From Balamuthia mandrillaris (taxonomy: Eukaryota), in assembly GCA_031835245.2 (NCBI GenBank), contig JAVKOQ020000099.1:1-64000 (forward strand): a DNA stretch of 64,000 nucleotides. The letters are read 5' to 3'. Position numbers and translations under genes: made by a program. The notes below the pieces were generated by a model. That model saw only the letters and a list, made by a program, of their open reading frames with translations, was not told where the DNA came from and did no database searches. Numbering within the stretch: position 1 is the stretch's first letter; every line of letters begins with the position of its first letter. This document shows, one piece after another, positions 6,901 to 47,343 of this stretch.

Positions 6901-7610
6901 AAGTGTGGAAATAAGAGAGCTGTGATCAATCTTTGAAATTTACACTAGGGATCTACTGTGGGAAGGCAGACATTATTTTCATGTACGATGGATAAACCTA
7001 TAGACGCCCTCATGTTAAAAGATTTGGATCTGATAGGCCGCTTCCGGATGGCTCTTGGTACAGAGCGCAAAGCACGATTTGTATCACTCCTCCAAAGAGA
7101 TGCAGAGGTATCCCAGTCACCTATGGCATTCTGTATACATGCTCTGTTCTTGGATTAATTACTCTCTCCCTCTCCTATCTCCTCTCTCGCTCTCTCTCCT
7201 CTCTCTCCAGTTCTTGGCAAGCTTTGGCATTATAGACTACAGCTTGTTGCTGGGCGTCCACTTCTTGGATAGAGAAGAAAATGAACCAGTGATAACCCCA
7301 CTAAGGTAAAGTGCATCGTGCATTGCTAACTATTCAGCTCGTAGTAACTTTTTTGTTTTTTTGTATTCAAAACAGTGCCACTCAACTGAAAAGAGCAGAC
7401 GGGGGCATCTTTGCCAGCGACAACGACCGAATGCCAAAGAACGCCATTTATTACTGCGCCATAATTGACATACTGCAACCCTACAACACCAAAAAAGTGC
7501 TGGAGCACAACATGAAGGCCTTGGTTTACAACAAAGACGGTATTTCCGTCTGTTCTCCACAAAAGTATGTGGAACGGTTTCTTCGGTTCATAACCAACTA
7601 CATCGACTGA
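3987..7610 (+). CDS. Phosphatidylinositol-phosphate 5-kinase (PIP5K family) with a long low-complexity N-terminus, multi-exon
   Basis: Exon motifs FREYAPLVFRELR, SGKSGNFLYITKD, SLLTRFVGMY, IHERYDLKGS, LKDLD, IIDYSLLLG, IIDILQPYN and YVERFLRFI. Confidence 0.9.
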
Positions 7611-7718
7611 CGAATGGTTGCGGAAGGAGATTAAGGCGGCGCCCTATGTGTAACAAATACTGCTTTATTTGATCCTCCCTTTCGATACAATTTGGTGATT
7701 AGTGGGGCGGTGCTGCAC

Positions 7719-10563: not shown

Positions 10564-10697
10564 CCTCGCAACCAACTCTTATTCCTGGTCTGTTTGCTGG
10601 CGTTACACCTGTGTTGGAAAGGGCAGGAAGGCAGCTGGCCACTGCTACTTGCTGGCGTTACCGCTGCCTGCTAATTAATTGTGCTTTTTTTTCGGCC

Positions 10698-11727
10698 AAG
10701 ATCATAAGATCTAAGGACAACAATCCTGAATTGTCTTTTGGGCCAATGAGCATGTTTCCCGCCAAAACAACCCTTCCTTCTCCAACTTAAGTGGAACCAC
10801 GTCTGTGAAGGCAAGGTGGTGGGTTGGGGTGGTGGGGTGAATCGTCATTCCCCTTGACACTTTTCTGCTGCTCGTTTTCTTTCTCTTCTCTTCTCTTCTC
10901 TTCTCTTCTCTTCTCTTCTCTTCTCTTCTCTTCTCTTCTCTTCTCTTCTCTCTTCTCTTCTCTTCTCTTCTCTTCTCTTCTCTTCTCTTCTCTTCTCTTC
11001 TCTTCTCTTCTCTTCTCTTCTCTTCTCTTCTCTTCTCTTCTCTTCTCTTCTCTTTCTTTTCAAAAGTAAACACACACATCCACGAAGCTCCATGCACCAC
11101 CGTATTTCTGATAGCTACACTTCTACTGCACAAGGAGGAAACCAGCGGAAGGAGGCAGAGGTGGAAACCGAAGCAGGTCAGCCGCAGGCAGGGGCACTGC
11201 TCCGATTGAAAAGGTTGCGTTCTTTTTTCTCTGCTCTCACTAATAAATTCTTTGTTTTTTTAAAAGCATCACGAACCTTTGTGCGCCTCTTCCACAACGC
11301 TACTGGAAGCTGGCCTGAAATGCAAGCTGCCCACAGTGCGGAAAAAAGTTTACTTCCTCTCTCGGGTTGGCCATCCACTTCGGTCGGGTCCACAAGGAAG
11401 GGGGTCGGGCCACTACTTCTGCTACATCCACTGCTACTCGGAAAAGAAGAGCGGAAAACGCCCCAGCAGCACCCCAGTCAAGGGCACAGAAGCATGGAAG
11501 GCCACAGGCTGCACCCGCCCAGACCTTTTGGAACCAGTTTTCCGGCGAAATCGGGAGAATCTTGATACACCCCGAGGGACTCGTTCCGTCTCGCCCAGCT
11601 GTACAGCTCACCAAAAAAGGCAAGAACGGAGAAGATCCGCCTTTATCCGCGCTCGGAACAAAAGAAGACGCTGGCCAAGTGGTTCAGCGCTGCACGATGG
11701 ACCTACAACAAGGCCGTGGAGTTCCAT
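10698..11727 (+). mobile_element. Truncated, decayed copy of the 5' half of the Fanzor element (paralog of 40147-41375)
   Basis: Colinear from AAGATCATAAGATCTAAGGACAACAA (10698 vs 40147) to ...TACAACAAGGCCGTGGAGTT (11727 vs 41375). Start codon lost, internal deletions, one frameshift, no RuvC part. Confidence 0.92.
10879..11055. repeat. (TCTTC)n microsatellite inside the decayed Fanzor copy
   Basis: Nearly perfect pentamer array. Only a short TC-rich seed is present at the equivalent position (~40366-40405) of the intact element. Confidence 0.95.
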
Positions 11728-11789
11728 CATCAGCTAACTTGCCCCAAGGCAAAACTGCGATGGGGCGGCACCGAGGCGTTTGCCAGAGA

Positions 11790-12875
11790 ACTTGACGCGG
11801 ACCCAGAGTTCAAAGCTGAGGTCATTTAATCTTATGGAGCCTTTACTGGTTTATTTTCAAGACACTCTGGGCGGAATTGTCTTTAGGGAGCCCTTGAGCA
11901 GCCTTCGATTTTGCTGTTCTTTTGGCCTACTTGGAAGAGGAGAAAAAACAGAGTGCCGAAATCTCCTCGCTCCCAGCCTTTTTTGATGAGGTTCGTCATC
12001 CGTTTCTCTCATCTTCCAGCTCTGTTGCGTCAATACTACGATGTCTGGGTCCTGCTTGGGCCATTACTCAAGCGCGCCTTTGTGTTTGTCACTGGCAAAC
12101 AGGCAGGCTTTTTGCTTAGGCCAGGGCTTGATTTCTACCCTAACGTCTCCTACGCCAATAATATCCATAGTGCTAGGGTCTTAGTGCAAAACACATTACT
12201 GAAATAGTTCTTCTTGCAAAAATGACAAACGACGTCCCTTTGTTCCAGCATTTGCAAGCTCATGGTCTAACTGAGGAGCTCCTCGAACCCTTATCCATAG
12301 CTCTTGAAAAGCGAACTGGGGGTGTACCACGTTTGCTGCATGCAGGTACCATCTCACCTGAGTCTGTCTTCTCACAAGTATGGCTGGTGTGATGTGTCCC
12401 TTCTTCTATGGGACAAATTCAAAAATGCCACCCGTTCCATTAAACTCAAGAACCAAAACTCCCTTTGATGCACACATTAAATGCATTGAACATCTATCTA
12501 CATCACTCCAAGGGTAGCAAACAGTTGGTCACCTTTTCCTTTGCAGACTATGTTGTGCAATACTTTGAGGAGCATACAACCCAATATGGAATGGACTACC
12601 AACTACCCTTAATCAAGCCACTACATTCCAACGTTTGTTTGAATAATGGTGCTCCTTTAGAGTTTTTGATTAGGGCCAACACAACAGCTCTTCTTGTTCC
12701 ACTGTTCAATTCCTCCAAAATTGTTAAAGGTCCTCTTCTCTTATCACATCAAGCTTATCTACCTCAAGTTGTTTCTGAACCCTTGACACTTAAAACACAA
12801 GATGAGCTACTGCTATTGAAAACAGAAATCTGGAGTGTTAAGGTTTTTTTGTTTCTTTTTTTATATTATGCTTAA
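11790..12875 (+). pseudogene. Degraded gene fragment, possibly a P-loop/STAND-type (Crinkler/RHS-like) relic
   Basis: Frameshifted coding-like pieces: ..AFFDEV.., ..FVFVTGK.. and LEKRTGGVPRLLH (~12303-12342; a GGxPR motif). Confidence 0.3.
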
Positions 12876-13699
12876 TGTTATTCTTAGGTATCTTTTGACA
12901 GTTGGTCATGTTGATGGAGGATAAACCCTGCAGATCAAGAAAGGGACAGCTCGTAAGCAACTCTGGGTTTATTCACAAGAAAAGAGGTGTGCTTTAAGTG
13001 TGTCACCAGGAAAAGTGGAAAATAAAAAGGGGTGGATAGTCTCTGTTCTATTGGCACTGTTGGATACTTAACACAATGTAATAGAGATATAGCTGTATGC
13101 TTAGTAATAGTGGCTCTATTATCGGGAGCAAGGGTGTAAAGAGCATTAAGTTATAAAGGTATTCCTTTTTGGTTTTTTTGACACTATTTTTTTTTTCTTT
13201 TCCAATTAGGCACCTCAGTATGTGTTCTTTCTTTAGGCATTTATACTTTTAATAAGAGCACAAACGAATTACAGCACTACTACTCAAGCTGATTGTTGTA
13301 TACCAGGAGAACAAAAGGAAAGAGACAGTGACAAATGGCTACATGCTCTTAAGCCTTTCTTTTGACTGAGTGGTAAATGAGTGGCAAACACTATATATTG
13401 CCTTTCCTTTCACTGACTTATCATTGCTTATAAAGAGAACAGGAGGAAAGAAAAGAGAGGAGAGGGATAAAAGCAGAAGGCCAGGGAGATAAGAGGAAGG
13501 GGAACAAGAACTACAGACACTGTGTGCATAGATTTTAGTAGCTACCTCAAAAGAAATGAAGAAAACAAAGTTTTCCCCCAAGGCAAAGGCAGGCTCAGAG
13601 AACCATCTAGAAAGATAACTTAACCAATAGTAAAAGGTTAATTGCTATAAACCAACATGTTGGTTTGGTTCCTTCATTAGGGATTTACAATTTTCAGCT

Positions 13700-15250
13700 T
13701 TTTGAGTCCTTCATTTCCATTGTCTATACTCCAGATTCTAAAACAATCTCTCCAAAGGTTTGGACATCTTAAGTATTGTGCTGTTACATCATCAGCATTG
13801 GCTTATCTCTTCAAGTAGTTAAAAGTGGCCATTTTGCTTCTCAGCATAACGAATTACTGCTTGCCTTTCCAATTCCCAGTAGGCCTTGATGGTTAACCAG
13901 CCCCAATCTGCTCTGTAAACCCCTGCCACAGTCCTTTGATGAACTTGCAATATTCTTGCTGTCTCATTTCCACAGCTTCAATCTTCTTTCACCATGATTT
14001 GAAAAGCTCTGTCATGCATAGTTCAGATGATAAGGTGAACTTGATGATAGCCTCTGCAGCAATCTGGCAGTGCATGTACTGAGGCTTTGAGCAATAGCTC
14101 TCCACTGCCTAGGGCTGTAGATGGCTTGCTGGCCTTGGTGATCCTCTCCTTGGCATGAGTTGTCCCCTCACCCTTTCTTCAAACCACAGTCCCAGGTACT
14201 TGACCTCCTTCACATGTTTCACAGTCTCTTCCTTAAGTCTCCATGGACATTGCACAAAAGAAGAGCAGAAAAGGCAGCAGTGGGCATCATTGCAGAGTAG
14301 TACTGTGATGATGAGTGTTATACATATAAACAGGCAGCTCTCTGAGGAATTTCTGGTAGAAAGAGGAGTTAAGCAAGGAGGAGTTTTGTCTTGTTATATA
14401 GTTAAGCGTGTCATATGCCTTGCTGATATCCAACAGAGCAACATAAGTATGCCTTGATTCATGATGAGCATCCAAGTTACATTATGCACATAGTTACCTC
14501 CAAACTTCATCATTTCCCATCAATATTGTCTACTTCAGCTGCTTTGCCCATCCTCAATCTTTTCCTTCATGCAAGATTAAAGCTCTTTTTCATAAGCCAA
14601 GATGATCCTTCTGGACCTGACAGTGTGAGTGTGTTCTCTCAATGCAAGCTCCCAATGGAAGAATCCTTCCTTCTTAGCTTTGCCCAATGTTCCTTGAAAG
14701 CTATCATGCTACCATGGTGCTCCATAATTGTTTGAGCTCTGCTTTACGCTTTGCCACTATTCTCTGCATGTTGCCAATCTTTTTCTGCATTTCCTTGATG
14801 TTCCCAAGTCTTCTCTACTTCATCCAGGTCCATTTGTTCTTCACAACTTTACAAACCTTTTTGTGAGTTCCACAATTTCCTCTCAAGCCTTTCCATCATT
14901 CTTTCCTTCTCATAGCCACTGAGCATAGGCTTTCATCACCTGCTTGTTCAAGGATGTTACCTCTGCTGTCTATCATTGCTTCCTTGCCCTACTTGTTAAT
15001 GCTTCTACAAGTCTCTTTTCTCTACCAAATCATTTCATTGCACTATTCCACAATTCTTTTTTCCACTTTCTCCAAAGATGTTCAACAGTAGCTGCTTTCT
15101 CACCAAGGTTATCCATTCCTCTCCTTTGCAGAAGTGCTTGCTCATGTTTTTGTACTTCCTTCACCACTTGCAATCTTCCTTCAATTAGGACTTCCACTTC
15201 TATCATTCCATCCAAACCCTGTTGCAATTATCTGCTGAATCCTTCCACTT
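13700..15250 (-). mobile_element. Degraded non-LTR retrotransposon (LINE) reverse-transcriptase region
   Basis: Minus strand: VALLDISKAYDTL (~14402-14450) and VKEVKYLGLWF (~14182-14215). Plus strand: GVKQGGVLS (~14365-14391, inverted segment). Many stops and frameshifts. Confidence 0.8.
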
Positions 15251-17000
15251 GACTATCATTCATCACCAGCTACCTTGTTAGCTCAGACCAGTAACACAAG
15301 AATACAAGAAAGTGAAACCAACTAACCAAGAATAGGCTTTTAATGAATGGAAAGTGTAATGACAGTGTGTGTGTTTATTTGTTACTTGTTCCTTGTCTAA
15401 GAGAAAAAGAAAGAGAGAAAAAGAAAAGAGAATATAAATGTTATATTACTCTCTCATAATACCTATCCCTATCTCTCCTTGTATATATATCTCTTTCGTT
15501 CATTCTTTTAAAGGTCTTTTCCCGATTGATTTGGTGTTTGTTAGGTTGTTTCCCTACCAGGCTTATCTCATAAAGAAAGAAAGAGACAAAAAGAATAAGA
15601 AAAAGAACCTATCAAGAAAAGCCATGTATCAGAAAGAAAAAAGGAAAGTTCCTAAGTTCCAAGACACAAGAGAGAAATCTACAGGAAACCACAAAAAGCT
15701 GACTAGGTGCTGATGTAAGCTGAGGAAGAACAAAGAAAAAAGCAACGCTTTGGTTATGTTAGCAGTTACCAACAATGCTGGAGTTCTAACAAGCTGTCCA
15801 AAGCCACTGTCCAATATTCTTTTCCTTTTCCTTCCTTTTTCCACATCTCTTTGCTCTTTAGGCTTTCACAGCATTTGCCTTCATTCTTGGCTTCCCTATG
15901 GCCTGGCTCTTTCCATAATATAGACAAAATTTGTTTCAGAATTTTTGATACTTCATTTGACCGCCAAAAACCACCAAGTGTGCAGGGTTTGTTCCTTTTT
16001 ATCTTCTTCATAGTTAACTGTTTTCTCAAATTAGTATAGTCCAAAACGTATTATTCAAAACAAAAACTAATAAACTGAAAGATGTTAACAGGAAGAAAAG
16101 AAAGAGAAAGGAGTAACAGAGCTAATATGTTAAGTGCAACAGAATGCCAGGAGCAAGCCAAGCCTATTCAAGGACAGCAAAAGCCATTTGAAGTCTTTTC
16201 ATTCATTCATCTGTATGTCTTTTATTGCCTCAGAATAAAGTACCACAGTCGCCTTATCCAGGAAATAAATGTAAGAATAAGGCCTTGCTAGCATCTTTCT
16301 TCTTTGACAACTACATTGGTTTCTTCAGCAATATGACAAAAAAGAGAAGAAGTTAAACAATGAAAGAATGGGAGTGAGTGCAGTGCAGTTTCAACAATTT
16401 AACCACTTCATCCTCCTCCTGCTCAAGAGTTAAATTGTGGGCTACTGCTAACATAACCAACTCTTTTTTCATTTCTTTCTTTGTTCCTTTCTCTTTTCTG
16501 TTTACAATCTCACATTAGCTTTCATTGATCTTTTGATACAAAGCCATTCCAAAGATCTTTCTCCTGCCTTCCCTGGAGCTTTCCTGAGCCTAGAACTTAA
16601 GAACAGAGAAACCAAAAAGTCACTCCTTTCTGAGCCTCTTTTTTTCCTTGGTTGCCTTCTCAATTATTTTTTGGCAACAAGAAAAGGTAGGGATTTCTTT
16701 TTCTGTCAACCTTCAATGTCATTTCTTTTCAATCTTGTGCAAAAAGCATGAAAGATTTCTAAGTATTTTGTCAAAGAGGAGATGACTTGACAGTTTGTGG
16801 TAGTTAGCCACTTACACTGGACAGACCACTGATTTCTGCCTCTGTTATTTTAATATGAGGAGTTTTGGGCAGTTTTTAAAGCAGTGTGACATTCCCTACC
16901 TAAGATAAACATTGCAGTCCAAGCCTGTAGAAGTGAACAAACCCAAGAATACATTTTTCTTTTTTCCTCTATGTCTTAGTGGAAAACTACACAAACATAC

Positions 17001-18100
17001 CTAGTAGTAGTATTGTAGTAGTAGTAATAAGAAGTTTATTTGCTCTAAGAGCAACACCACACTATACATAAAAAGTAAGCATTGTACATACATAGTGTAC
17101 TCTTACTTCTCTTACTCCCTCATCCTCAATGCCTTCCTAATTGTTATGTTAGTTCACAAGTGAAAGGTGTTGAATGAGCTTTCAGACTAACTTTGTATCA
17201 TCTAGCTATCCTTTTCTTCCCCTTTTCCTCTCTTATCATTTCCTTACTTTTACATTACTTCCAAAGATTGATAAAATGCAGAAGAACTTCCATACTTCCA
17301 ACTTGCTCTTGCTGCCCATAATCTCCAGACTTGTTTACAACTCTGCCTACAATGCTCCATCTCTTGAGCTTTGTTGCATTTCTTTCCACTTGACAGGAGC
17401 TTTGTTGTACAGTTTTCTATAATTAGCTTTCTACCTTGTTCTTCATCTCCATTGTTCACATTCCAGATTCTAAAACGATCTTACCAAAGATTTGGACATC
17501 TAAATAGGAAGTGTTCTGCAGTTTCTTCCTCAGCATTGCATACAGGGCACATACTGTCCTCTTCAGACTGCTGAATGGCTCCCCACTTTTTTCCAATGGG
17601 CAGTCCACCACAGTGAATAGCATTCATCAATCATTCCTTCCTTAGGTTGGCAATCACTAAGCTCCGTTGTTGTCCAACCAAACATCTTCCATTTGTCAAG
17701 AAGTTATGCCAAAGCCATGCTCTTGTTTCTCTTTCTCCTTCAACTGCATACTCTGCCTTGGCTACTCGAGTTAAGGTCCTCATCCTCTTGGCTTTCTTTT
17801 CAATGCTACTCATCCCTTCACTTCCCTCACCTTCTCTCTTCTCACCTTCCTCTTTCCTTGCTTGGCTTATCTCTTCCAGAAGCTCAAAGTGGCCATCTTG
17901 CCTCTCAGCATGGCGAATTACTGCTTGCCTTTCCAACCCACAGTAGGCCTTGATGGTCAACCAGCCCAATTCTGCTCTACAAACCCCTGCCACAGTCCTT
18001 TAATGAACTTGCAATACACTTCTTGCTGTCTCATTCCACACAGCTTTGATCTTCTTCCACCATGATTTGGAAAGCTCTGTCATGCAAAGTCCATATGACA
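17001..18100 (-). mobile_element. 5'-truncated LINE copy (ORF C-terminus, 3' UTR and (TAC)n tail)
   Basis: Shares the RAELGWLTIKAY region with 13850-14030. Ends on the minus strand in AATAAACTTCTTATTACTACTAC at ~17001-17042. Confidence 0.75.
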
Positions 18101-18639
18101 AGGTTTACTTTAAATCATTGCAAAGCCAAATGTAAGATCAATGGTCTGTGTTTATAACACATTGAAAAACTTCAGCTAGAAGAGAAGTCATGAATCAAGT
18201 GTGATGGTTGAAGAAATGTCTACATGCCTACTGACTTCAGCATGCTAAGAGGCAAAAGGCCAGCCATGTTTCATAGTATTGATGGTTCAAAGTAGTGGTG
18301 GGCGTATATTTTCATAAAGCAAAGTTGGTATATAAGAGTTTCTATTAAAGAAGTGCAAGAGTGTAACACAGAAAAAAGGTCAGAAAGAAATAGCATTTCT
18401 AGTAAACCAACAACACCTCATGAAACATACCCAAAGAACACCTTATTCAAAATAGCAATAAAGGAAGATTTTAACAATAAATGCTCTAAAACTGAAACTT
18501 GCTCAAGTAATATTTAAGGTATTGAGCCAAACTAGTTTAAAATGTAATATTAGCATGCAGGTTTCTCTTCTGAGCAACATGGTTGCAGTCTTCAGCAGTA
18601 AAAGATTATTTGGCAGTCTTTAGAAGCAATGGGCATTGC

Positions 18640-19100
18640 ATATAAGACTAGATAAGGTGAAGAGGGGCAGAGGCATTAAAAAAGCCTTGCACGTTGGAGA
18701 TAATACTGCAAGTAGTAGGGATTGGGTATGTAAGGGCCATGAAGAGCTTGTTTTGGAGGCGCAGGTCATGCAAATATGCCTGGGTGATTTTGCCATCAGC
18801 ATCCTTCCTTGGGTACAATGGTGAAAGGAAAGTTCCAGCGACTGTCAGGTGGGGCAAGCATGATGATGTCAGTATGCAGCCATTCCGCCACTTGCAGATT
18901 GATGATAAGCATCAAATGGTGTAGAATGGGGTATTGGTGGCAACAAACAGGAGAACTCCAGTGTCCAGATGGAGAACTGCTTTAAGGAGAGTACATGAGG
19001 GTCCTGTCAGCAAAGCCTTATTGGAGGTATTTCTTGATGGCTTCAAGAATACACTTGCAGATGTGTTCTTTGACAGCTTTCACCAAACATTGATATTGGC
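18640..19100 (-). mobile_element. Degraded LTR-type (Ty3/Gypsy- or DIRS-like) reverse-transcriptase N-terminal fragment
   Basis: FLSPLYPRKDADGKITQAYLHDLRLQNKLFMALTYPIPT resembles SP..KKDG..R..D.R.LN....YPLP of RT domains 1-2. Confidence 0.45.
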
Positions 19101-20154
19101 ATTAGGTGATGTCATTGTCCTTGAAGCAGGGTAATGGTTCCTCAGGGTAGTTGATTGGAATGTGTGTTATGCCTATACTGGACTTGTGCATGAAGTGGAT
19201 GATCAATTGACTGTCTAGTTGAGGCAACATGTCATGGAAATAATGTTCACTTGGAACAGCAACAGAAGCCAATGGCCAGTGGCTCTGTTTTGGCATGTAG
19301 CAGTGGTTTCATGGTTTCCAAGTTTGATTATCTAGTTGGCTTGCTTGGTTTTGGCACAAACTAAGTCAACAATAAAAGGGTCCATGAACTAACATAACAA
19401 TTGGGAAGGCATTGAGGATGAGGGAGTAAGAGAAGTAAAAGTACACTATGTATGTACAATGCTTACTTTTTATGTATAGGTTGTGCTCATTTCAGTTGCA
19501 GCAGTGTTGACATTGTAGGAGCAGAAGATGGGGCTGGTGTAGCAGATGTTGCTGGAGCAGACTGCTGTTGTAACCTGCAGGCCTTTTTTTGGCAGTGATC
19601 TTCCATGTGGTTGCATATTTTGCAGTGTGCACAAACAGCACCCATTGTGTGAGGTACTGGTGATTGCTGTTGAGGTGATTTGCTATGACCTTTATCTTTT
19701 GAAGGAGGTTGGGAAATCTCTAATTCAATGAGGACTGTGAGCTTGTAAGCAGCAATGACATCTTGTGGCTTGTTGTGAAGAGTCTAATGCTTGTACTTGA
19801 TGTGAGGAAGAAGGGTTTGTCCAAAGAAAAAGGCTTTGAGGTAGTCATAGAAGATGTCAGGAAGATGACTACAGAGTACAGTGTACCAATCAATGAGCTG
19901 ATAAACTATAGATACATGGCCATACTTGATCATTGGAGGGGCTATTCTCCAAAGACATATGATGGACACTGGGTTTTGGACAACAGAGAGCACTTTGATA
20001 GCAAGTGAAAGGGAGCTATTATTGTGGCTGATTGTCACTTTTGTCTCCTCCCAAAAGACACATTTGACAAAATCAAGATAAATAACACCTGAGCCAAAGA
20101 AGAACAACACCAGACCAAGGCTTATTGTCTTCATTCCTCTTGTATTCTTTTTTT

Positions 20155-20860
20155 GTTGCTGCTATGGCATAGTACAAAAAAAGAGATTGAAGGGAAAAGC
20201 TAAGCAGGAGCATAGCTTTGGCATAACCTCTTGACTTATGGAAGTTGGACAACAATAGAGCTTCGTGATTACCAACCCAAGGAAAGAATGATTGATGAAT
20301 GCTATTGGAAAAAAGTGGAGAGCCATTCCGCAGTCTGAAGAGAACAGTAAGTGCCGTGCATGCAATGCTGAGGAAGAAACAGCAGAACACTTCCTATTTA
20401 GATGTTCAAATCCCTGGGAAGATCGTTTTAGAATCTGGAATGTATGGAGATGAAGAACAAGTCAGAAAGCTAATTATAGAAGACTATACAACAAAGCTCC
20501 TGTCAAGTGGAAAGAAATGCAATGTAAGCAAAGTTGTAAATGAGTCTAGAGATTATAGGCAGTAAGAGCAAGTGTAAGTATGGAAGTTCAGCTGCCTTTT
20601 ATCAATCTTTGGAAGTAATGTAATCGTAAGGAAAAGATAAGAAAGAAAAGGAGAAAGAAAAGGATTGCTATATGATATGAAACTAGTCTAAAAGCTCATT
20701 CAAAACCATTCACTTGTGAATTAAAAACAATTAGGAAGGCATGAGGGTGAAAGAGTAAAAGAAGTAAGAGTACACTATGTATGTACAATGCTTACTTTTT
20801 ATATATAGTGTGGCATTGCTCTTAGAGCAAATAAACTTCTTATTACTACTACTACAATAT
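20155..20860 (+). mobile_element. 5'-truncated LINE copy of the same family, opposite orientation
   Basis: Reverse-complement match to ~17010-17760. Ends GCAAATAAACTTCTTATTACTACTACTAC. Confidence 0.75.
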
Positions 20861-21204
20861 GGTTAGCCCTTGTTGGCCAGGTAAATAAGAAAAAAAGTTA
20901 GAGAGTTAGGACGTTGTTTGAACCCAATAGCTCAGCTATTGACAACTACCAACTTAACTCTTTCGTTGTTCCTTTCTTCTTTTTTGTTTACACAAGCTTA
21001 TGTACTGCTATCAAGCTTTTCAAACAGAAGAACAACAGAGCACCTAGAAAAAAACAAAAACTTGTTTTCTTCATTTCATCAAAAACACCTAACTCTTGTT
21101 TCATTGTTTCTTTCTTGGTTTTATCTCTGCTGGCAGGATATTTGCTCCAGAAATCTGCCCTTTTTATTTGAAAAACTTTATAACCTGCACTGTTAATAGA
21201 AAGC

Positions 21205-21838
21205 CTCATGTTGATGAAGGATAGACCCTGCAGATTAAGAAAGGGATGGCATGTAAGCAACTCTGCGTTTATTCACAAGAAAAAGAGATATGGATCAAAG
21301 TGTATGTTTTGAATGTATTGTGATAAGAGAATTTGGAGTATCCAGGAAAAATGTAGACAGGTAATCATGATGAAGTAAATTGTTGGTTTAACCAACACTT
21401 GCTTGTCATGCCAGTAATAGTTGGCTTGTTTTGGATAAGCATGATTTTGAAAATGGGCAGTGTAATAGGAAAAACCTCTAATATCAGCATGATTATGTGC
21501 TCTTTTCTCTTTCCTCTTTGCTATTGGCTTTCTTGATCAGTACCCAGATATTTGCTATTTCTACTGGAAAAGGGTGGATAAAAACAGTAACAAATATCCA
21601 CAGATATTTTAACTATCCTGCTGGCAAATGTTGGAAAACCAACAATTCACATCATTATGACTTCCTGTCAACACTTTGCCTGGATACCCAAATTTTCTCA
21701 CCCCTTTTTATTTTCCCTTTTTCCTGGCAACACACTCAAAGCACACACTTTGGTCCACACCTCTTTTCTTGTGAATAAACCCAGAGTCACTTACATGCTG
21801 TCCCTTTCTTGATCTGCAGGGTTTATCCCCCATCAACA
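21205..21838. repeat. ~90-bp dispersed repeat, three copies (12905-12990 +, 21205-21290 +, 21755-21838 -)
   Basis: Shared TGTTGATG..GGATA.ACCCTGCAGAT.AAGAAAGGGA..GC..GTAAG..ACTCTG.GTTTATTCACAAGAAAA. Confidence 0.8.
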
Positions 21839-22159
21839 CAAAGATGCGATTTCTAACACAGAAAAAAGATAATAAAGAGCAAAAGAAACTTTACTATTTA
21901 TATAGCCTGTTAATGTCAGTAACCAAAATAAATTAAATGAATAAAAGAGAAAAAGCTGTCCTCCTATTCAACATAGCAATTGATTGGCCAGTCAATAAAA
22001 CAATAAAAAAGAGAGAAAAGGAGCAATAGTGCTAGCAATAAAAGAAGGCTTTGCCAACATTAATACGTTAACTTTATTAAATGACAAAGATCCTGACTTT
22101 TTGTTAAAATGTTCAAATCTTTGGAAAGATATTATTAACTATTTGCAACCCTTAACTCA

Positions 22160-23115
22160 TGCAGATTATGCAGCTGAAGAAGAAAGCAGAACAAGAGCAT
22201 GGCTGTAGTATTACCTCTTAACAAACAGAAGATGTGTGATAATAAGGCCAGTAGGAGAAGTACATAACAAACACCAACTCAATGGGCATAGGGAAAAGAC
22301 CTTTAATAGAATGAAAGAAAGAAATCTATGTACAAGGAGATAGGGTAGTTCTTTTGCATTCCATCATTCTTTAGAAGTAATGTAAAATTTAGAAAAAGAG
22401 GACATTCAACACCTTTCACTTATGAACTAACATAACAATTGGGAAGGCATTGAGGATGAGGGAGTAAGAGAAGTAAGAGTACACTATGTATGTACAATGC
22501 TTACTTTTTATGTATAGTGTGGTGTTGCTCTTAGAGCAAATAAACTTCTTATTACTACTACTACTAGAAAAAGAGGAAAAAGGAAAGAAAAAAAGAGGAG
22601 ATATAGTGCAAAGGTGAAAGCTCATTCAACACCTTTCACTTGTCATAGTGCACAATTGGGAAGGATGAGAGAGTAAGAGAAATAAGAGTACACTAAGTCC
22701 CAGGTTTGAGCCCTGTTTGTGGAATCAACCTTCTGTAGAAGGCAAACAGCAGTGTACTCTAAGGCAACGTCAGAGATCCCTCCTGTTGTCTTTCTTCTTT
22801 CTTTCAGAATAAACTTTATTCTGATCACTTGTCCCTATCTTTTTTTTTAAAATTGAGCCAACAACTTCACTCAACAACTTCACACTTATCTGCTCCCATC
22901 TCTTCCCTCCTCCTACCCCATCCCTCGCTCAACATACTTATTCTCAAGTGGAAAGAAATGCAATAGAGCCAAAGCAAGTGAATAGAAAAAGCGAGTAGCA
23001 GGACAAGGGAGGTATAAGGGGATCTAAAAGCTCGTTCAACACCTTTCACTTGTTTATCCTTGCAGCAATTGGAAAGGCATCAAGAATGAGAGAGTAAGAG
23101 AAGCAGGGTACGCTA
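22160..23115 (+). repeat. Cluster of LINE 3'-end fragments of the same family
   Basis: Recurrent CAACACCTTTCACTT..CAATTGGGAAGG..GAGTAAGAGAAGTAAGAGTACACTA blocks at ~22405, ~22625 and ~23035. AATAAA plus (TAC)n tail at ~22540-22566. Confidence 0.7.
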
Positions 23116-37769: not shown

Positions 37770-39287
37770 TCAGGCTTCCGGTCGTGAAAGCCTCCTTTTC
37801 TCGGCGGCGGGAGGGACATATCCCTCCAGGATGTTCTTGAGGGAGACCAACGAGCAGAAGGAGTTCTTCTGGCGAGAAGACTCCATGCGATTAAGGATGG
37901 TCAGCGTGTTGGAGGCCGTATAGAGGGTGTAGGTTGATCTGCCTCCAAAGATGGAACGACATTGGTCCATCAGGCGAAAGTCTTGGGAAGTGTCGATCTC
38001 CTCCACTCCCGACTTCTTTTTCCAGTAGCTGAAGGTGGTTCCTTTCATGCGAAGAATGTCGCACAGTTCTTTCTTGATCAACATGGGGGTGCCGTCCGGA
38101 GCAAAGATGACGTGCAGAGGCAGGTTGTCCACATAGCGGACATCGGGCGGCCGCAATTGCAAGGCAGAAGAGGAATGCAGCACTTTGCGTTGGAGCTTCA
38201 TGATGTAGTTGTTGGAAAAACCGGTCTCACGGATAACCGACTCTCGGTCTTCTTGTTTGTTGAGCAGGTTTACAATGCTTTCAGGGTTGACAGAGGCAGT
38301 GGAGAGAGCGGCCTTCACAGAAGTTTCGAGCTCGGCCGGGTCCACCACAACGTTTGGCTGTTGCGGTGAAGTAAAACACTTGCTGCTATGCTCCAGTGTA
38401 GGGTTAGCGGAGAGGGTCCGTTTCCGCTTCAGCCTCTTGAGAGGACGAGGACGAGCAACGTCTTTGGGCTTCCACTCTTCCTCCTCATCGCTTTCCTGGT
38501 TTTCATTCCGTGGGTAGGGCCGTTTGTGCTTACGTATGTTCGGACGTTCTTCTCTCTCTGCCGCTTCGGATGTTCTCTTTTGAGTGCGGATAAAGTCGTA
38601 TTCGGTGTCGGAGTAGTTCTTTTGGGACTTGGAGGAGGAGGGCTGGTGGTCGTCTTTGTCTTCGGCTTGACTGAGTTCCAGAAGGAGGGGGGAAAGTTCA
38701 GAGGTGGCGTTGGAAGGGATGGTAGCGGTAGTTCTATACATGGTAAAATGGGTTCGTGGCTTGCGGACTATTCCGGGGATGCTGGCGGCGGAGGAATAAC
38801 CATGCCGGTCCTTTGCATCATCCGTGCGAAGCAAAGCAGCGAGCTCCTCCTGCGGAGAGATGGGAGATTTGGCAGACAAGGTCTTTGTCTCGGCAACTGA
38901 GTTTTGCTGTTGTTCGGGCTGTTGCTCGGCTTCCTCGGCCAAGGCAGCTCTATAGAGGTCATGCACGCTCACTCCGCCGCTGCCGCCAGCGTGCTGGTGA
39001 TAATGGCCGTCTTCCGTGGAGGAGGTCTCCTGCTTCCATCGGTTGAGCCACTTGTGCTTAGGAAAATGCTTGCTTCCGTTGTTCATCTTTGGCACAAAGT
39101 AGGTGTGGTGATGCCGAGGTGCAGGAAATGCTCCGTCGTCGGAGTAGGGTGAGGAAGGCGGGCTCGAGTGGGGCGTTGGGGAGGAGGAGAAGCAAGGGGA
39201 ACTTGGGGCGCAACGTCGGTCTTCAGGATGTTGGGGGTCGCGTTGGTGGTGGTCGGTGGAGCCCTCTTCGAAAAGTGAAGTGGTCAT
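37770..39287 (-). CDS. Intronless hypothetical protein (~505 aa): disordered N-terminus, basic NLS-like patches, C-terminal Bro-N-like putative DNA-binding domain
   Basis: Long uninterrupted ORF, first ATG at 39287. RPLKRLKRKR. C-terminal LPLHVIFAPDGTPMLIKKELCDIL. Confidence 0.65.
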   Translation of the reverse strand: MTTSLFEEGSTDHHQRDPQHPEDRRCAPSSPCFSSSPTPHSSPPSSPYSDDGAFPAPRHHHTYFVPKMNNGSKHFPKHKWLNRWKQETSSTEDGHYHQHAGGSGGVSVHDLYRAALAEEAEQQPEQQQNSVAETKTLSAKSPISPQEELAALLRTDDAKDRHGYSSAASIPGIVRKPRTHFTMYRTTATIPSNATSELSPLLLELSQAEDKDDHQPSSSKSQKNYSDTEYDFIRTQKRTSEAAEREERPNIRKHKRPYPRNENQESDEEEEWKPKDVARPRPLKRLKRKRTLSANPTLEHSSKCFTSPQQPNVVVDPAELETSVKAALSTASVNPESIVNLLNKQEDRESVIRETGFSNNYIMKLQRKVLHSSSALQLRPPDVRYVDNLPLHVIFAPDGTPMLIKKELCDILRMKGTTFSYWKKKSGVEEIDTSQDFRLMDQCRSIFGGRSTYTLYTASNTLTILNRMESSRQKNSFCSLVSLKNILEGYVPPAAEKRRLSRPEA

Positions 39288-40726
39288 CTGAGATGAGTGG
39301 CACAAAGCGATGAAACGGGCTATGCTGGTGGGGGTGGTCGTCGTGGTGGTGGAGGCGCAGTGGCTCAAAGTCGAGGCGGTGAGAGACTTGGTTTCCGTTC
39401 GTTCCGTTCTCTCTTTCAACGTTCAAGAAAAAGTAAAGAATAAAACAAAAAATAAAACAAACAGCTATTTGTAGTCCCGATGATGGAACTCGTCAACAAA
39501 GGGCCGTCGGGTATTTACAATATTTTGTGGCAAACAAAAAAAAGAGGGATGACTTTTCCGTACTTCTTCCTCCCTCGTCTTCTTGATATATGGTTTCTTG
39601 GAAAGCAAAGATGTCACCCAAATACGCAGTAGAAGTGGAAGAAGTAGAAAAAGAAGAAGAAGTAGAGTACAAAGAAATGGAGCAAACAAAAACGGCTAGG
39701 ATGGACAACTTGTCCTACGACCGCAATCCTACCACCACCACCACCACACAAAGAGATAAATATAAAATCAAAAAGGGGATAGCTGAAGGCCACGCAGCGG
39801 GGACGTGGCAGACGTCCTTTCGTGTCAACTTGTTCTTCGGTGGTCGAATTGACGGGTGTGGTTTTGCTTTCCGTGTGTTTTCCCTGACCCAACGGAAACT
39901 TCAGCAAAGTCGGGAAAAAGGTTGGAAACTTTGGAACCGAAAACTCCTAAAACGTTCTTAATGTTCCGATTGGTTGGTAAATATCCGCAAGAAACTTCGA
40001 GGAAAAATGTGCTAAAAATCGCAGAGCTGTGACGTGGAGCTCTTAAGAATGCAAAAAATGCCCCGACGATAGTTGGAATGCCATGAGTTCGGAGAATTCT
40101 TGGTATGTAAAAAATGCAATTCAAGAGAGCCAGAGCAGGCGACGCAAAGATCATAAGATCTAAGGACAACAAAAAAAGAAATTACATGACATTCGTCTTT
40201 TGGGCCAATGAGCATTTTTCCCGCCAAAACAACCCTTCCTTCTCCCACCCAAGGCAAAGTGGTGGGTTGGGGTGTGGGGTGGGATGAATGGAATGGATGC
40301 TCATGCTGCTGCCGCCAATAAACTTTTGGTACTCGTCATTCGCATTGACACTTTTCTGCTACTCGTTTTCTTTTCTTCTCTTCTTTTCTTGTCGTTTCTT
40401 TCTTTTCAAAAGTAAACACACAGACACACACATCCACGAAGCTCCACGCACCACCGTATTTCTCATTGCTACGCTTCTACTACACAAGGAGGAAACCAGC
40501 GGCGGAAGGAGGCAGAGGTGGAAACCGAAGCGGTTCAGCAGCAGGCAGGGGCACCGCTCCGATTGAAAAGGTAGCGTTCTTTTTTCTCTGCTCGCTCACT
40601 ACATTTTTTGATGATGGAAAAAAAATTTGTTACCAACCACTCACTAATGATTTCTTTTGTTTAAAAAAGAACAGCATCACGAACCTCTGTGCGCCTCTTC
40701 CACAACGCTGCTGGAAGCTGGCCTGA

Positions 40727-42469
40727 ATGGCAAGTTGCCCACAGTGCCGAAAAAAGTTTGCTACCTCTCACGGGTTGGCCGTTCACTTCGGTCGGGTCCA
40801 CAAGGAAGGGGGTCGCACCACTACTTCTTCTACTCCCACTGCTACTCGGAAAAGAAGAGCGGAAAACGCCCCAGCGGCACCTCAGGCAAGGGCACAGAAG
40901 CGTGGAAGGCCGCAGGCTGCACCCGCCCAGCCCTTTTGGAACCAGTTTTCCAGCGAAATCGGGAGAAGATTAATACGCCCAGAAGCCTTGTGCTTGGAGG
41001 AACCCTTTGCCTGTGGTTCAGGATGGTTCACCGCCTGCAAGCACATTCCTAACGGAGAAAAGTTGTTGGAGGAGGAGGAGGAGAAGAAGGAGAAGGAGAA
41101 GGAGAAGAAGGAGGAAGAGGAAGAGGAGAAGGAGAAGGAGAAGGAGAAGGAAGAAGAGGAGAAAAACCAGAAAGGCTTGTTAGGCCTCATCGAGGGACTC
41201 GTTCCGTCTCGCCCAGCCGTACAGCTCACCAAAAAAGGCAAGAATGGAGAGGAGAAACCGGTAGTGGGGCGATTGGAGAAGATCCGCCTTTATCCGCGCT
41301 CGGAACAAAAGAAGACGCTGGCCAAGTGGTTCGGCACAGTACGATGGACCTACAACAAGGCCGTGGAGTTTCATCGTGAACATAAAGGAATGCCTCTTAA
41401 GGAGATGAAGGAACAAGTCAGGGAGAAATTCCTGAATAACGGCAATTTCAACGGAGAGGACAAGAGCCTTGCGTGGGTGTTGGAAACTCCTCGATACATT
41501 CGCAGTGACGCCGTCGATGATTTCTTCAACGGCGTGAAAACCAGCTTGGCGGCGGGCAGGACTGGATTCAAGATGAAGTTCCGTGGTCGGAAGGACAAGA
41601 GCCAGTCTCTCAGCATCCAAGCCAGGGAGTGGAACCACAGCAAGTCCATCCGCCAACTCTTCTTCGGGGAGGCGCGAATCAAAGCGAGGGACAAGAACTA
41701 CAAAGTTCCGTCGGAGGTGCTCTATGCCGTTCGTCTGGTGAAAGACACTCGACTGGGCCATTACTACCTCTGTGTGCCTCAGCCTTTGAAGCTCATGGGC
41801 GAGAGCCAAGCCCGTGAGCACCGAAGGAGAGAGGCAGGCATCATCGCCTTGGATCCAGGAGTGCGCACATTCATGACCACCTACAACGGCTGCGGGGAGG
41901 TCACCGAGTGGGGCAAAGCGGATATCAACGAGATAGGCAAGCTGTGCCACCGCCTGGACCGCATGCAGAGTAAGGGCACCAAGGGCAACCACAGGCAACG
42001 GCGCCGTCTCCGAAGGGCCGCTGCTCGGCTTCGCCAGAGGATCCGCAACCTGGTGGATGACCTCCACAAGAAGCTCGTGTCTTGGTTGGTCAGGAACTTC
42101 TCCCTCATCCTTCTGCCAGAGTTCAGGAGCCAGCAGATGGTGCGGCGAGGCCACCGCCGCATTGGCTCACGAACGGCCAGAGCCATGCTCACCTGGTCCC
42201 ACTATCGCTTCAGGCAGAGGCTCCTCAACAAGGCCAAGCAATTTCCGTCCTGTACGGTCTGCCTCTGCGATGAGGAATACACCTCCAAGACCTGCGGCAA
42301 GTGCGGCCAAGTCCACCACCAGTTGGGGGGAAACAAGACCTTTCGGTGCCCCCAACCCGAGTGTGGCTACCAGGCCGATCGAGATGCCAACGCCGCCCGA
42401 AACATCTTGATCCGCTTTTTTACGTTACAAGCACTTACCACCTCCTCCTCCTCTGTGAGGGGGCGGTAG
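40727..42469 (+). CDS. Fanzor (Fanzor2/IS607-TnpB-like) RNA-guided endonuclease, 580 aa, with an N-terminal C2H2 zinc finger
   Basis: HTH_OrfB-like KIRLYPRSEQKKTLAKWFGTVRWTYN. RuvC-I IIALDPGVRTF (D376). ILLPEF, with the alternative catalytic E in DEEYTSKTC (E516). Zn ribbon CGKC..CPQPEC. RuvC-III DRDANAARNIL (D553). Confidence 0.95.
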   Translation: MASCPQCRKKFATSHGLAVHFGRVHKEGGRTTTSSTPTATRKRRAENAPAAPQARAQKRGRPQAAPAQPFWNQFSSEIGRRLIRPEALCLEEPFACGSGWFTACKHIPNGEKLLEEEEEKKEKEKEKKEEEEEEKEKEKEKEEEEKNQKGLLGLIEGLVPSRPAVQLTKKGKNGEEKPVVGRLEKIRLYPRSEQKKTLAKWFGTVRWTYNKAVEFHREHKGMPLKEMKEQVREKFLNNGNFNGEDKSLAWVLETPRYIRSDAVDDFFNGVKTSLAAGRTGFKMKFRGRKDKSQSLSIQAREWNHSKSIRQLFFGEARIKARDKNYKVPSEVLYAVRLVKDTRLGHYYLCVPQPLKLMGESQAREHRRREAGIIALDPGVRTFMTTYNGCGEVTEWGKADINEIGKLCHRLDRMQSKGTKGNHRQRRRLRRAAARLRQRIRNLVDDLHKKLVSWLVRNFSLILLPEFRSQQMVRRGHRRIGSRTARAMLTWSHYRFRQRLLNKAKQFPSCTVCLCDEEYTSKTCGKCGQVHHQLGGNKTFRCPQPECGYQADRDANAARNILIRFFTLQALTTSSSSVRGR

Positions 42470-42550
42470 GCGGTAAGGTTGCTTTGGTGCCGGCACCGTT
42501 GCTTATAGCGAGTCGTAAGACAAGCCGTGATTAGGCACGCCGGAGGTGGG
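42425..42550 (+). ncRNA. Candidate omegaRNA scaffold overlapping the Fanzor 3' end
   Basis: Long stem AAGCACTTACC..CCTCCTC-TGT-GAGGGGG..GGTAAG(GT)TGCTT (42429-42484), followed by GGTGCCGGCACC, a GTC-GTAA-GAC GNRA hairpin and GCC-GTGATTA-GGC. Confidence 0.7.
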
Positions 42551-42649
42551 TTATTTTTTGTTTCTCTGTTTTTTTTTTCCCCCGTCAACTAATTTTGCTT
42601 TATTTTCGTTGTCCCATTGATCGGCTTGATCTTGGCGCCATCTTTTAGG

Positions 42650-44677
42650 ATGCTACCAAGAGGCAGCAAGGCGAGGCTGCTGATACCCTCTATTTCAAGG
42701 TTTGTTGTGGCACCTACCCTGCTCAGTGCCTATTATTAACTGTATCGCCCCTTGACGAACCAAAAAGTCGGTCGTGGCCGCGAAACGGTAGTTCTGCGCT
42801 TGGCCCCGCTACACGCTACCTCTCGACGCAAACAGGAAGTGACGGAGGAGAAGAGGACTACGACGTGGTGGTGGTTGGTGGAGGAATGGTAGGAACAGCA
42901 CTAGCGTGTGCTATCGGTATGTTTGTGCAACTGTGTTTCCATTTGGGAACTAGGAACCAATGCCCGGCCTAACCTTTTTAAAACGGCAGCGACCTCTCCC
43001 CTAACAAAGTACCAACGGGTAGCACTGGTGGAAAGTGCGGCAATACCGGATGTTACTGCGGAGCCATTGCCTCCCTTTCCCGACATAAGAGTGAGCGCAC
43101 TTAGTCCAGGCTCTGTACGCTTCCTTCATGGTTTGTTTTGGTTTTTTACTTCACTTTTTTACCTATTGGGGGAAGCGTGCTTGCTTGCCGCTGCGTTTGC
43201 TGTACTATGGTTGCTCACATACGGACGTTCAACACAGCATTGGGAGCGTGGGACAGCATAGCCAACAGTCACAGAGCCACACCCTACGACGCTATGAAGG
43301 TCTGGGACGCTACGAACACTGCGCAGCTCAACTTTAATGCAGAGGAGGTAGGCACGGACGCCCTTGGCTATATCGTTGAGAACAAGCTGGTTGTCTCTGC
43401 CCTTTTTCAGAGGCTGAAGTCCCTTCCCTCTGTGAAGGTCATAGCTGGAGCACTGGATACCATCCAGCAAGATGAAGATGAGCAAGCAAAGGACCAACAA
43501 GGAAAGGCCACAGTGACCGATTGGACAAAGAGAATACCGCTTACGAGATTGCGCTTGAAAGACGGCAAACAGTTGAAAACACGCCTTTTGGTTGGCGCTG
43601 ATGGAGCTCAGTCAAAGATCCGCAAGACTGTTGCTCGCTTCCCTACCTTTGGTTTTGATTACTCGCAACGAGGGGTCGTGGCTTCTATTGCGTTAAACCA
43701 GCACACTTCCACTGCCTGGCAGCGGTTTCTTGCATCAGGACCCGTTGCTATGCTTCCTGTAAGTATTCCCGCTCGAATCTTATCTCCCTCTTTGTTTTAT
43801 GTAACACATTCAATTATCAGATGTTTGCAGACAACGCATCGATTGTGTGGTCTACAAGCATGCCACATAGCGAGGAGCTTCTACGGATGCCTGAAAATGA
43901 ATTCATCGATGCGCTAAACCATGCTTTTCATGCTCCTCCAGAATCGACCCCACTCTCTCCTCTATCCTATCTTACAGAGCCTCTGCGTAGCATATTACCG
44001 AATACTATTCCACTTTCGGGTTCAGCTCCTCCGCCCTGCCCTCCTCTTGCTATTTCACTCACCGGCAAGCGCGCCGCCTTCCCTTTGAAATTTATGCACG
44101 CCAACAAGTACATTCGTCCGCGTCTGGCGCTCATCGGGTACATCTTTTGCTCTTCTCATCTTCTCTCCCCCTTCCGTTCTCTCTCCAGACTTCCATTTGC
44201 TGACAGCTATTTGAACAGCGATGCGGCCCACTGTGTGCATCCATTAGCAGGGCAAGGAGTCAACTTAGGTTTTGCTGACGTTGTGAGCCTGAGCAAAGCC
44301 CTTGCTCACGCTGTTGAATCGGGACGTGATGTGGGAGATCAGACTGTGCTGCAAGAGTATGAAGACGAACGGAAAAACCAGAACCTGTCCATGCTGTTGG
44401 CTCTTGACGCCATCAAACGGATCTTTGAGACCAACTCTGTTCCTTTGGCATTCGCCAGAAGCGCAGGCATCACCTTGACCAATGTCCTCTCGCCCATCAA
44501 GGTAATGTCGGCGTCCCTTTTTTCCTTCCATTCCTTTCTTTTTCTTTGATCCTGACAACACCTGTGTTCAAGTCGCTGTTTGTGGGGCGTGCCACCGGCC
44601 AAACTCTCCCCTTGGATCATCTCCAACCAAACGAAGAAGCAGAGGTAACCCCGTTGCGCAGCGCTCCATCAGGGTGA
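42650..44677 (+). CDS. COQ6: Ubiquinone biosynthesis monooxygenase COQ6, multi-exon
   Basis: DVVVVGGGMVGTALAC, RVSALSPGS, LGYIVEN, LLVGADGAQS, AWQRFLASGPVAMLP, AAFPL and DAAHCVHPLAGQGVNLGFAD. Confidence 0.92.
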
Positions 44678-47136: not shown

Positions 47137-47225
47137 TTGATTATAAGACCTACAAGGAAAATAAAGGAAACGAAAGGCGATGAGGTGGCCTCTAACATTT
47201 TCCTTGAAAAATTTCCCTTGTGCGC

Positions 47226-47343
47226 AACGGCGTGAAAACCAACCTGGCAGCGGGCAGAGGCGCCACTGGATTCCAGATGAAGTTCCGTGGTCGGAAGGAC
47301 AAACAAGAGCCAGTCTCTCAGCATCCAAGCCAGAGAGTGGAAC
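47226..47343 (+). mobile_element. Isolated internal fragment of the Fanzor ORF (paralog of 41528-41636)
   Basis: AACGGCGTGAAAACC..GATGAAGTTCCGTGGTCGGAAGGACA..GAGCCAGTCTCTCAGCATCCAAGCCAG.GAGTGGAAC, with small insertions. Confidence 0.9.

Follow-up and report, generated by a model that had tools for sequence, protein, structure and literature searches.

How an apparently intact gene for a Fanzor RNA-guided nuclease comes to lie directly upstream of COQ6 in the amoeba Balamuthia mandrillaris, and what it might do there, is the question raised by the 64,000-nt stretch of contig JAVKOQ020000099.1 analyzed here, which is referred to below as the window. Our answer, to which we assign a probability of about 0.7, is that the gene encodes an intact Fanzor2 carried by a 2.5-kb element that has inverted ends, lacks a transposase and occurs in many copies, and that the protein likely serves this element as its RNA-guided homing nuclease. 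The protein family, the catalytic residues, the element bounds, the inverted repeats, the many copies, the empty allele and the transcription of the family were each read directly from the data. A preliminary description of the locus had recognized the Fanzor gene, which is indeed real and intact, and had overlooked the inverted-repeat element, its multi-copy family and the empty allele.

The open reading frame (ORF) at 40727..42469 (plus strand, like all features below unless stated otherwise) encodes 580 amino acids with no internal stop and is matched by Pfam, NCBIfam, PDB sequences, Foldseek and VIA. Pfam places HTH_OrfB_IS605 (PF12323) at residues 185-215 (E 5e-10), where an HTH_OrfB-like motif had been suspected, and also matches the Cas12f1-like TNB model (E 2e-16) and, under that model's cut-off, OrfB_IS605 (E 1e-6), while the NCBIfam model guided_TnpB scores 126 bits against a cut-off of 100; the profile search that had been proposed as a check is thus positive. 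The top PDB match by sequence is ApmFz2 (PDB 9B0L; E 6e-27), and the alignment pairs D376, P464, E516 and D553 with D324, G416, E467 and D501 of ApmFz2. According to the accounts in PMC11832414 and 10.64898/2026.06.23.733943, D324, E467 and D501 are the catalytic triad of that enzyme and G416 occupies the replaced canonical site. All three catalytic residues therefore lie where they had been claimed to lie, D376 in the RuvC-I DPG motif (41852..41860), the alternative RuvC-II glutamate E516 at 42272..42274 and the RuvC-III D553 at 42383..42385; P464 at the canonical RuvC-II site is encoded by the codon at 42116. The Cys4 zinc ribbon of C523, C526, C541 and C546 (42293..42364), recognized from the sequence and by Pfam, is separated from E516 by six residues. 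DPG together with the alternative glutamate is described as the Fanzor fingerprint in PMC10711439.

In an alignment of 113 proteins (the Balamuthia protein itself and the 112 that remained of 120 listed hits once three Balamuthia paralogs and five partial hits had been set aside), D376, P377, G378, P464 and E516 are invariant (113/113) and D553 is present in 111. The adjoining E465 is kept in just 32 of the 113, so that of the ILLPEF motif to which attention had been drawn the proline stands and the glutamate does not. Between copies, the visible variation in the nuclease core is mostly silent. At the visible variant sites, 10 of 12 changes in codons 91-574 are synonymous compared with one of six in codons 8-37, an excess of p 2e-4 if the neutral share is assumed to be 0.3; this tally draws on the 40 visible rows of 234 variant rows in 39200-43400 and on the variants listed for 42380-42800, with two sites read by hand. 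The three private changes of the window copy that are visible in the nuclease core are all synonymous.

The AlphaFold2 model of the protein (pLDDT 82.6), which had also been suggested as a check, is closest to the same enzyme: Foldseek returned 9B0L first (E 1e-20), with SpuFz1 at E 2e-5, and VIA aligned 420 residues of the model to 9B0L with a Z score of 22.0 and a root-mean-square deviation of 4.1. Because the VIA alignment begins at model residue 67 (residue 53 of the chain), while that to TnpB begins only at about residue 178, the match includes the Fanzor2-type, RuvC-R-like N-terminal domain (40925..41041), whose PFWN...SGWF motif is present in 33 of 40 homologs with a long N-terminus. 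The likeness to ApmFz2 of Acanthamoeba polyphaga mimivirus (L79; PMC11832414) extends over domain order, N-terminal RuvC-R domain, DPG, alternative glutamate and Cys4 ribbon, with all three catalytic residues aligned at an identity of about 21% in the structural alignment. The two differ in that ApmFz2 is reported in the same source to reside in an IS607 element with TnpA and to use GGG as its target-adjacent motif (TAM), and in that the Balamuthia protein has an extra C2H2-like motif and a 30-residue Glu/Lys insert. The C2H2-like motif (C4, C7, H20 and H25; 40736..40801) is matched by Pfam zf-C2H2_4 only at E 0.07, with C2H2 families scoring 0.90-0.91 in atlas rows, which serves as a lead only, and it is not kept in the homologs of the 113-protein alignment. 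It is followed by RKRR at residue 41 and by KRGRP at residue 58, the latter of which we take to be AT-hook-like.

Membership in the Fanzors is thus indicated by DPG, by the alternative glutamate ahead of the zinc finger with Pro/Gly at the canonical site and by the eukaryotic genome, and membership in Fanzor2 by the compact HTH/TnpB-like architecture, the N-terminal RuvC-R domain and the placement in trees; the TDG motif of Fanzor1 is absent. Motifs, profiles, structure and trees agree in supporting the assignment of the ORF to Fanzor2 of the IS607-TnpB lineage, the layout proposed in the preliminary description. RNA-guided DNA cleavage is an activity that the protein may have, as predicted from its sequence.

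Among the hits listed, the closest proteins (77-92% identical) carry the label Balamuthia mandrillaris, and the nearest named relatives, at 44-45% identity, are Lipomyces KAJ8100094.1 and transcripts of Mycamoeba and Phalansterium. In a FastTree of 189 rows, the Balamuthia family (support 100) sits on a long branch of its own in an open fork of 120 rows, and in a quick IQ-TREE of 35 rows it belongs to an 11-row set (SH-aLRT 96) with Mycamoeba and the Lipomyces tetrasporus protein P0087, which agrees with KAJ8100094.1 in length and in its first 400 residues. KAJ8100094.1 is given as a Fanzor in Table S5 of PMC10711439. The phylogeny called for earlier therefore places the protein among Fanzor2 with the Lipomyces Fanzor, in trees without Fanzor1 rows and likewise without mollusc, Chloropicon and Naegleria proteins. 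Another annotated Balamuthia protein, P0132, whose gene model fuses three parts (a TnpA with the motif YCRVSS, a host-like protein and a Fanzor2 other than the present one), falls outside the 11-row set. A viral scan with the 580-residue protein gave 79 loci, none above 41% identity, and a metagenome scan gave two; the ends of the viral loci show no similarity to the Balamuthia element, and its end motif has no match in the viral contigs. At one phage IS607 locus (L001, 982-2638), the N-terminal domain of the nuclease is overprinted on tnpA in a second frame.

The gene occupies a mobile element of about 2.5 kb (40137..42644) that carries the Fanzor and no transposase, and whose bounds follow from depth steps, loose ends and a bridging contig. 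When contigs and reads were mapped on 39200-43400 (four runs) and on 42380-42800 (four runs), the depth climbed near 40137 and dropped near 42640, and loose ends of other copies were found at 40137 and 42639. Single-position depths in run X1 were 3,800-8,200 within the element and 50-110 outside, figures that are not a copy number. The element is bounded by imperfect terminal inverted repeats of about 52 bp with GATC subrepeats on the left (40137..40188) and a right partner on the minus strand (42588..42643), which became apparent when the left end was aligned to the reverse-complemented right end; they share 40 identities in 58 columns, a score reached by none of 5000 random window pairs, and by 11 of 1000 in a looser local test of 120 nt. 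In other copies, the letters before 40137 are TA in three of four runs (19 reads of X21, 14 reads of X22 and seven contigs of X1) and GA in the fourth (two contigs of X2), and the right end reads GCC then TTAG behind 42639 in X1, X2 and X5 and GCCCTAG in X4, with TAG closing it in all four contig runs that list it. The usual ends are accordingly TA/AGGCG...CGCCT/TA followed by G. Reading them as products of an AG crossover was rejected because the symmetry of the ends is centered on TA. IS630 elements prefer CTAG as their target. A TA duplication with inverted repeats is a mark of IS630/Tc1/mariner transposons in published descriptions, and Fanzor2 proteins in inverted-repeat transposons, reported from Chloropicon and molluscs in PMC10711439, are designated Fanzor2*. 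With its terminal inverted repeats the present element fits this Fanzor2* kind, a Fanzor2 in a cut-and-paste transposon. An autonomous IS607 element would look different: here TnpA is absent upstream, inverted repeats are present and the target is TTAG, not GG. The earlier statement that no serine recombinase stands alongside is borne out, since tblastn with two TnpA queries found nothing in the window, and the overlapping frame at 40675-41049 has no Pfam match, nor do overlapping frames hold a TnpA remnant; among the related viral and metagenome loci, 67 of 81 have TnpA, and the window has none.

The family is large. The annotation holds 12 paralogs on 12 contigs and nine further fragments, of which the paralog P0127 retains the three acidic residues. 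The window itself contains a decayed 5'-half copy at 10694..11731 (about 82% identical, without RuvC), to whose region a Balamuthia-labelled record, P0211, maps (11092-12204), and an internal fragment of 119 nt at 47225..47343 (87% identical), both found by sequence comparison. Members that share only the ends also exist, as seen from a joint of 40243 to 42589 and loose ends at 40238 and 42591. An alignment of the paralogs separates two subfamilies that differ in the REC/WED regions, at residues ~220-240 and ~280-305, and TAM recognition may lie in these stretches. A putative promoter-like motif, TTTCCCGCCAAA, stands behind a CCAAT box at 40217..40228; its two matches in the window are both in element copies, the decayed second copy having kept it, and presumably it is an E2F-like site.

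The element stands 5 nt upstream of the start codon of COQ6, whose coding exons, as far as examined, span 42650..44502 with matches to TIGR01989. A contig of run X1 joins 40122 to 42645 and represents the empty allele, in which the target tetranucleotide TTAG (42645..42648) occurs once, and two contigs of X4 and three RNA reads of X23 likewise enter at 42645 from the left flank. The empty site reads CC/TTAG, one base ahead of the G-ATG of COQ6 (ATG at 42650). The first intron of COQ6 (42700-42767) is spliced in X23 reads and in an X5 contig, and exon 2 reads YDVVVVGGGMVG in frame by hand. At 42676-42792, run X1 yields three haplotype contigs with depths of 26.7, 25.7 and 26.5, one of them about 10% diverged, which suggests three chromosome sets in a triploid-like, highly heterozygous genome. 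The empty alleles come from a ~10% diverged haplotype or from other strains, and some flank differences may be older than the insertion. A contig of run X2 in the host flank extends 29 nt across the element boundary, just short of the 31 letters required of a bridge; X2 may be the source of the window itself. A host-type splice donor, GTATGT, is present at 40103, at a distance of 34 nt from the left end of the element, whose last letters are TCTTTTAG, followed by G directly at the COQ6 ATG; judging from these letters, transcripts of the filled allele might lose the entire element by splicing.

The family is transcribed. RNA reads on the element, from runs that carry the species label, number 370 in X21 and 430 in X22, taken from about 3% and 5% of the runs, represent both mates' strands and are deeper than those on COQ6. 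The ORF had been described as intronless, which holds for the coding region; the 5' leader contains intron-like GT..AG stretches at 40571..40674, with both ends kept in the second copy, and, similarly, at 40329-40423. Public gene models of paralogs splice at 40571..40674, and neither leader stretch is among the listed RNA joints. What the reads do skip is an 86-nt stretch, 40599..40684, that has GT..AG on the minus strand (eight reads of X21, two of X22; absent from X1 and X2 contigs) and is likely an intron in RNA made antisense to one of the copies. This spliced antisense RNA overlaps the sense intron-like stretch and could be regulatory. Splicing of both leader introns would create an upstream ATG frame (40295-41051) that runs past the Fanzor start in another reading frame; in public models this frame is wrongly fused to the nuclease, and it could dampen translation. 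At loose ends at 41319-41356 in X21 and X22, RNA reads match only WFGTVRWTYN and then continue as QCLAGVKDG (16-18 reads in X22), so that a third, diverged Fanzor family appears to be transcribed.

On the reading we favor, that of a homing nuclease within a Fanzor2*-type element, a DDE transposase encoded elsewhere, probably IS630/Tc1/mariner-like, would move the element into (C/G/T)TAG sites with duplication of TA. The omega RNA would be formed from the 3' end of the transcript, beginning roughly 20 codons before the end of the ORF and extending over the right repeat and the duplicated TA(G), and the ~20 host bases that follow would be its guide. The complex would then cut sites that combine TAM and guide, namely alleles or sister chromatids without the element, and homologous repair would copy the element back or across. 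For the window copy, the target would be the COQ6 start on the other chromosome copies, repaired from the filled allele. In the published accounts covered here, Fanzor2 enzymes are active, the omega RNA reaches the element end and takes the 3' target-site duplication into its scaffold, the next ~20 bases are the guide, and the 5' duplication lies in the TAM. By this layout a TAM containing TA(G) is predicted for the Balamuthia element, as for MmeFz2, whose TAM is TAG in one account and TTTA in another. The scaffold of ApmFz2 measures 205 nt according to PMC11832414, and mollusc Fanzor2* RNAs are reported to abut the element end. The predicted scaffold in the window accordingly has putative bounds of 42400..42648, from within the ORF end through the right repeat, and the predicted guide at 42649..42668 would comprise the start codon and first codons of COQ6. 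The segment 42400-42555 folds at z -3.3, the best of 53 windows in a folding scan is that at 42350 (z -4.3), and no substitution is listed within 42448-42581 in four runs. At 42474-42478, near the position of the pseudoknot strand in ApmFz2, five nucleotides are complementary to the usual terminal CCTTA, a match within chance; in the window copy two of the five pairs would be G-U.

Several observations weigh against this reading. The left junction of the window copy has no TA and shows a 5-nt duplication of the flank, and its right junction has ATCTT where most copies have GCC. One X5 contig has ATC before TTAG, which makes part of the right-end difference a family variant and weakens, at that end, the idea, which we had considered, of both junctions as 5-nt templated repair scars; we infer that the irregular junctions arose by imprecise integration or by repair following failed excision. 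With such junctions the window copy probably cannot move and may be a poor source of guides, while its protein could still serve sister copies. The empty alleles have no listed difference in the predicted target, the first listed change being at 42685, and run X2 seems to contain a filled left junction together with an empty-type right flank; unchanged targets and the presence of both junction types in X2 mean that homing here is not efficient. With a TAM of only the three letters TAG, moreover, the right junction of a filled allele could not be distinguished from an empty site. The RNA reads mismatch the window at its private letters and thus stem from other copies or strains, so that transcription belongs to the family and is not assignable to the window copy. 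As for the guide RNA, the best window has its equal in coding sequence at 41700 (z -4.1 among the 53), 42440-42670 folds no better than shuffles (z 0.04), and Rfam gave no match for the predicted omega RNA. The TA duplication was read from consensus flanks and not from the paired flanks of single copies, a transposase with the same ends was not found and the superfamily is unproven, and none of the 12 annotated paralogs has all four motif blocks. Gene models and assembly errors may account for part of this incompleteness; deletions of 1-2 nt in the G run at 42325 are present in short-read contigs too, at about 20% of the depth.

The strongest competing explanation, which we regard as possible and still clearly the less probable one, is that the frame is intact and the locus dead, imprecise insertion or failed excision having fixed a silent copy with no usable guide while sister copies are possibly active. 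The aberrant junctions (no TA and a flank duplication of 5 nt on the left, ATCTT for GCC on the right), the persistence of empty targets and the want of RNA reads assignable to the window copy are what it would lead one to expect, and CrFNuc, an intact-looking Fanzor, is reported to have shown no cleavage in a published test. The X5 contig with its family-type ATC and the synonymous nature of the three private changes visible in the core do not agree with it, and the RNA runs appear to come from empty-allele strains, which are unable to show the window copy at all. We consider it unlikely that the element is instead a non-autonomous IS607-type element, moved in trans by a serine recombinase with crossover at TA, in which the repeats would be arrays of recombinase-binding motifs and the role of the nuclease would be unchanged. 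A possible source of such a recombinase exists, as the genome annotation contains an IS607 TnpA (P0132; PF00239, 40% identical to phage TnpA) fused in its gene model to another Fanzor; TnpA accompanies 67 of the 81 related viral and metagenome loci, the short GATC repeats in the element ends recall the multiple motifs of IS607 ends, and the IS607 of ApmFz2 is described with inverted repeats. Other published descriptions give IS607 without terminal inverted repeats and mostly with GG at ends and target, whereas the Balamuthia ends match over ~52 bp as TA/AGG...CCT/TA, and the Fanzor of P0132 is only 26% identical and stands apart in the tree.

Slightly less probable again is a guide RNA that stops short of the right repeat, with the scaffold ending near 42545-42550 at an old IS607 end; the guide would then be internal and fixed, directed at Fanzor-less members, or the last ~100 nt (GTGGGT...TTAG) would form an intron whose removal connects the scaffold with the flank. 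The structure does end near 42555 with a U-rich, unfolded remainder, phage IS607 relatives end 110-170 nt past RuvC-III, which corresponds to ~42490-42550 in the window, the GT donor position 42545 is the very point at which one contig of X5, an RNA-like run, exits the element, and family members sharing only the ends are there to be targeted. That contig is a single one whose next letters are TTAG, so that a deletion fits it equally well; X5 shows no depletion of the repeat region, the host donors read in COQ6 do not resemble GTGGGT, and both the 205-nt scaffold of ApmFz2 and the mollusc RNAs reported to abut the element end favor a longer RNA. A bolder composite seems improbable to us: in Amoebozoa, an IS630/mariner-like transposon would have captured Fanzor2 independently, the duplicated TA with the G after it would double as TAM and splice acceptor, splicing of the right repeat would bring scaffold and flank together, and cutting at the COQ6 start would spread the insertion between the chromosome copies of a polyploid amoeba. 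It is scarcely credible that the ORF comes from bacterial or viral contamination, or that it is a host gene domesticated as a single copy. The TnpB profiles that match it are prokaryotic models and the N-terminus has gained a zinc-finger-like motif, but its flanks are eukaryotic and contain introns, the X2 contig passes from host flank 29 nt into the element, and domestication is at odds with the many decayed paralogs and the empty alleles. The preliminary description had named contamination as one of the outcomes that would overturn it; the ORF is joined to COQ6, RhoGEF, DOCK and G-beta genes, and the eukaryotic flanks together with the Balamuthia mandrillaris labels on the closest records indicate that it is no contaminant.

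A homing nuclease in a Fanzor2*-type element, as we prefer to read the locus, would have its closest published counterparts in mollusc MmeFz2 and its kin and in Chloropicon primus, which are described in PMC10711439 and PMC10432273 as Fanzor2 without TnpA between degenerate inverted repeats with a target duplication; the Balamuthia empty site, furthermore, contains TAG, the TAM reported for MmeFz2. The present host is an amoebozoan, the mollusc proteins appear far off by eye (DPGGRTF and another N-terminus), and Fanzor2 was probably captured independently in Balamuthia. Spu-1/SpuFz1 and the Fanzor1 proteins in Mariner elements resemble the Balamuthia family, as portrayed in PMC10432273 and PMC3627910, in being transposase-less, with inverted repeats, TA duplication and deleted derivatives sharing the ends. 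Fanzor1 is, in contrast, described as larger, with a TDG motif and no pseudoknot, whereas the Balamuthia protein lacks TDG and has the HTH and the Fanzor2 N-terminal domain.

The enzyme class is already known; what is added is a Fanzor2* in a new host group, Amoebozoa, with a testable natural target. No published report of a Fanzor in Balamuthia was found in a search that had subscription journals and Repbase outside its range. The name Balamuthia is absent from the supplements of PMC10711439 and PMC10432273, one picture file of the latter excepted, and from that of PMC10530073, where its absence says little as a control term is absent too; on splicing of Fanzor guide RNAs, the literature searched held only group I intron IStrons and unrelated work. 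The natural role of Fanzors is still open according to the Discussion of PMC10432273, and an amoeba with three haplotypes, in which one defined site is filled on some alleles and empty on others, allows homing in a eukaryote to be looked for directly. The locus would also set an amoebozoan case beside the two captures of Fanzor2 so far reported for inverted-repeat transposons, proposed as an intermediate towards Fanzor1, and it offers a further compact nuclease candidate whose TAM, TA(G), can be predicted.

The wider neighborhood is that of a eukaryotic genome. Pfam matches were obtained for 10 of the 26 ORFs scanned in the window, including G-beta WD40, RhoGEF, DOCK and RALGAPB, and the gene next to the element, COQ6, is like the other flanking genes eukaryotic and intron-containing. 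The region 12900-23100 is low in GC and rich in repeats, has no ORF longer than 143 amino acids and contains, besides several shorter repeats, a 733-bp inverted repeat at 17011-17743 and 20187-20859 (83%).

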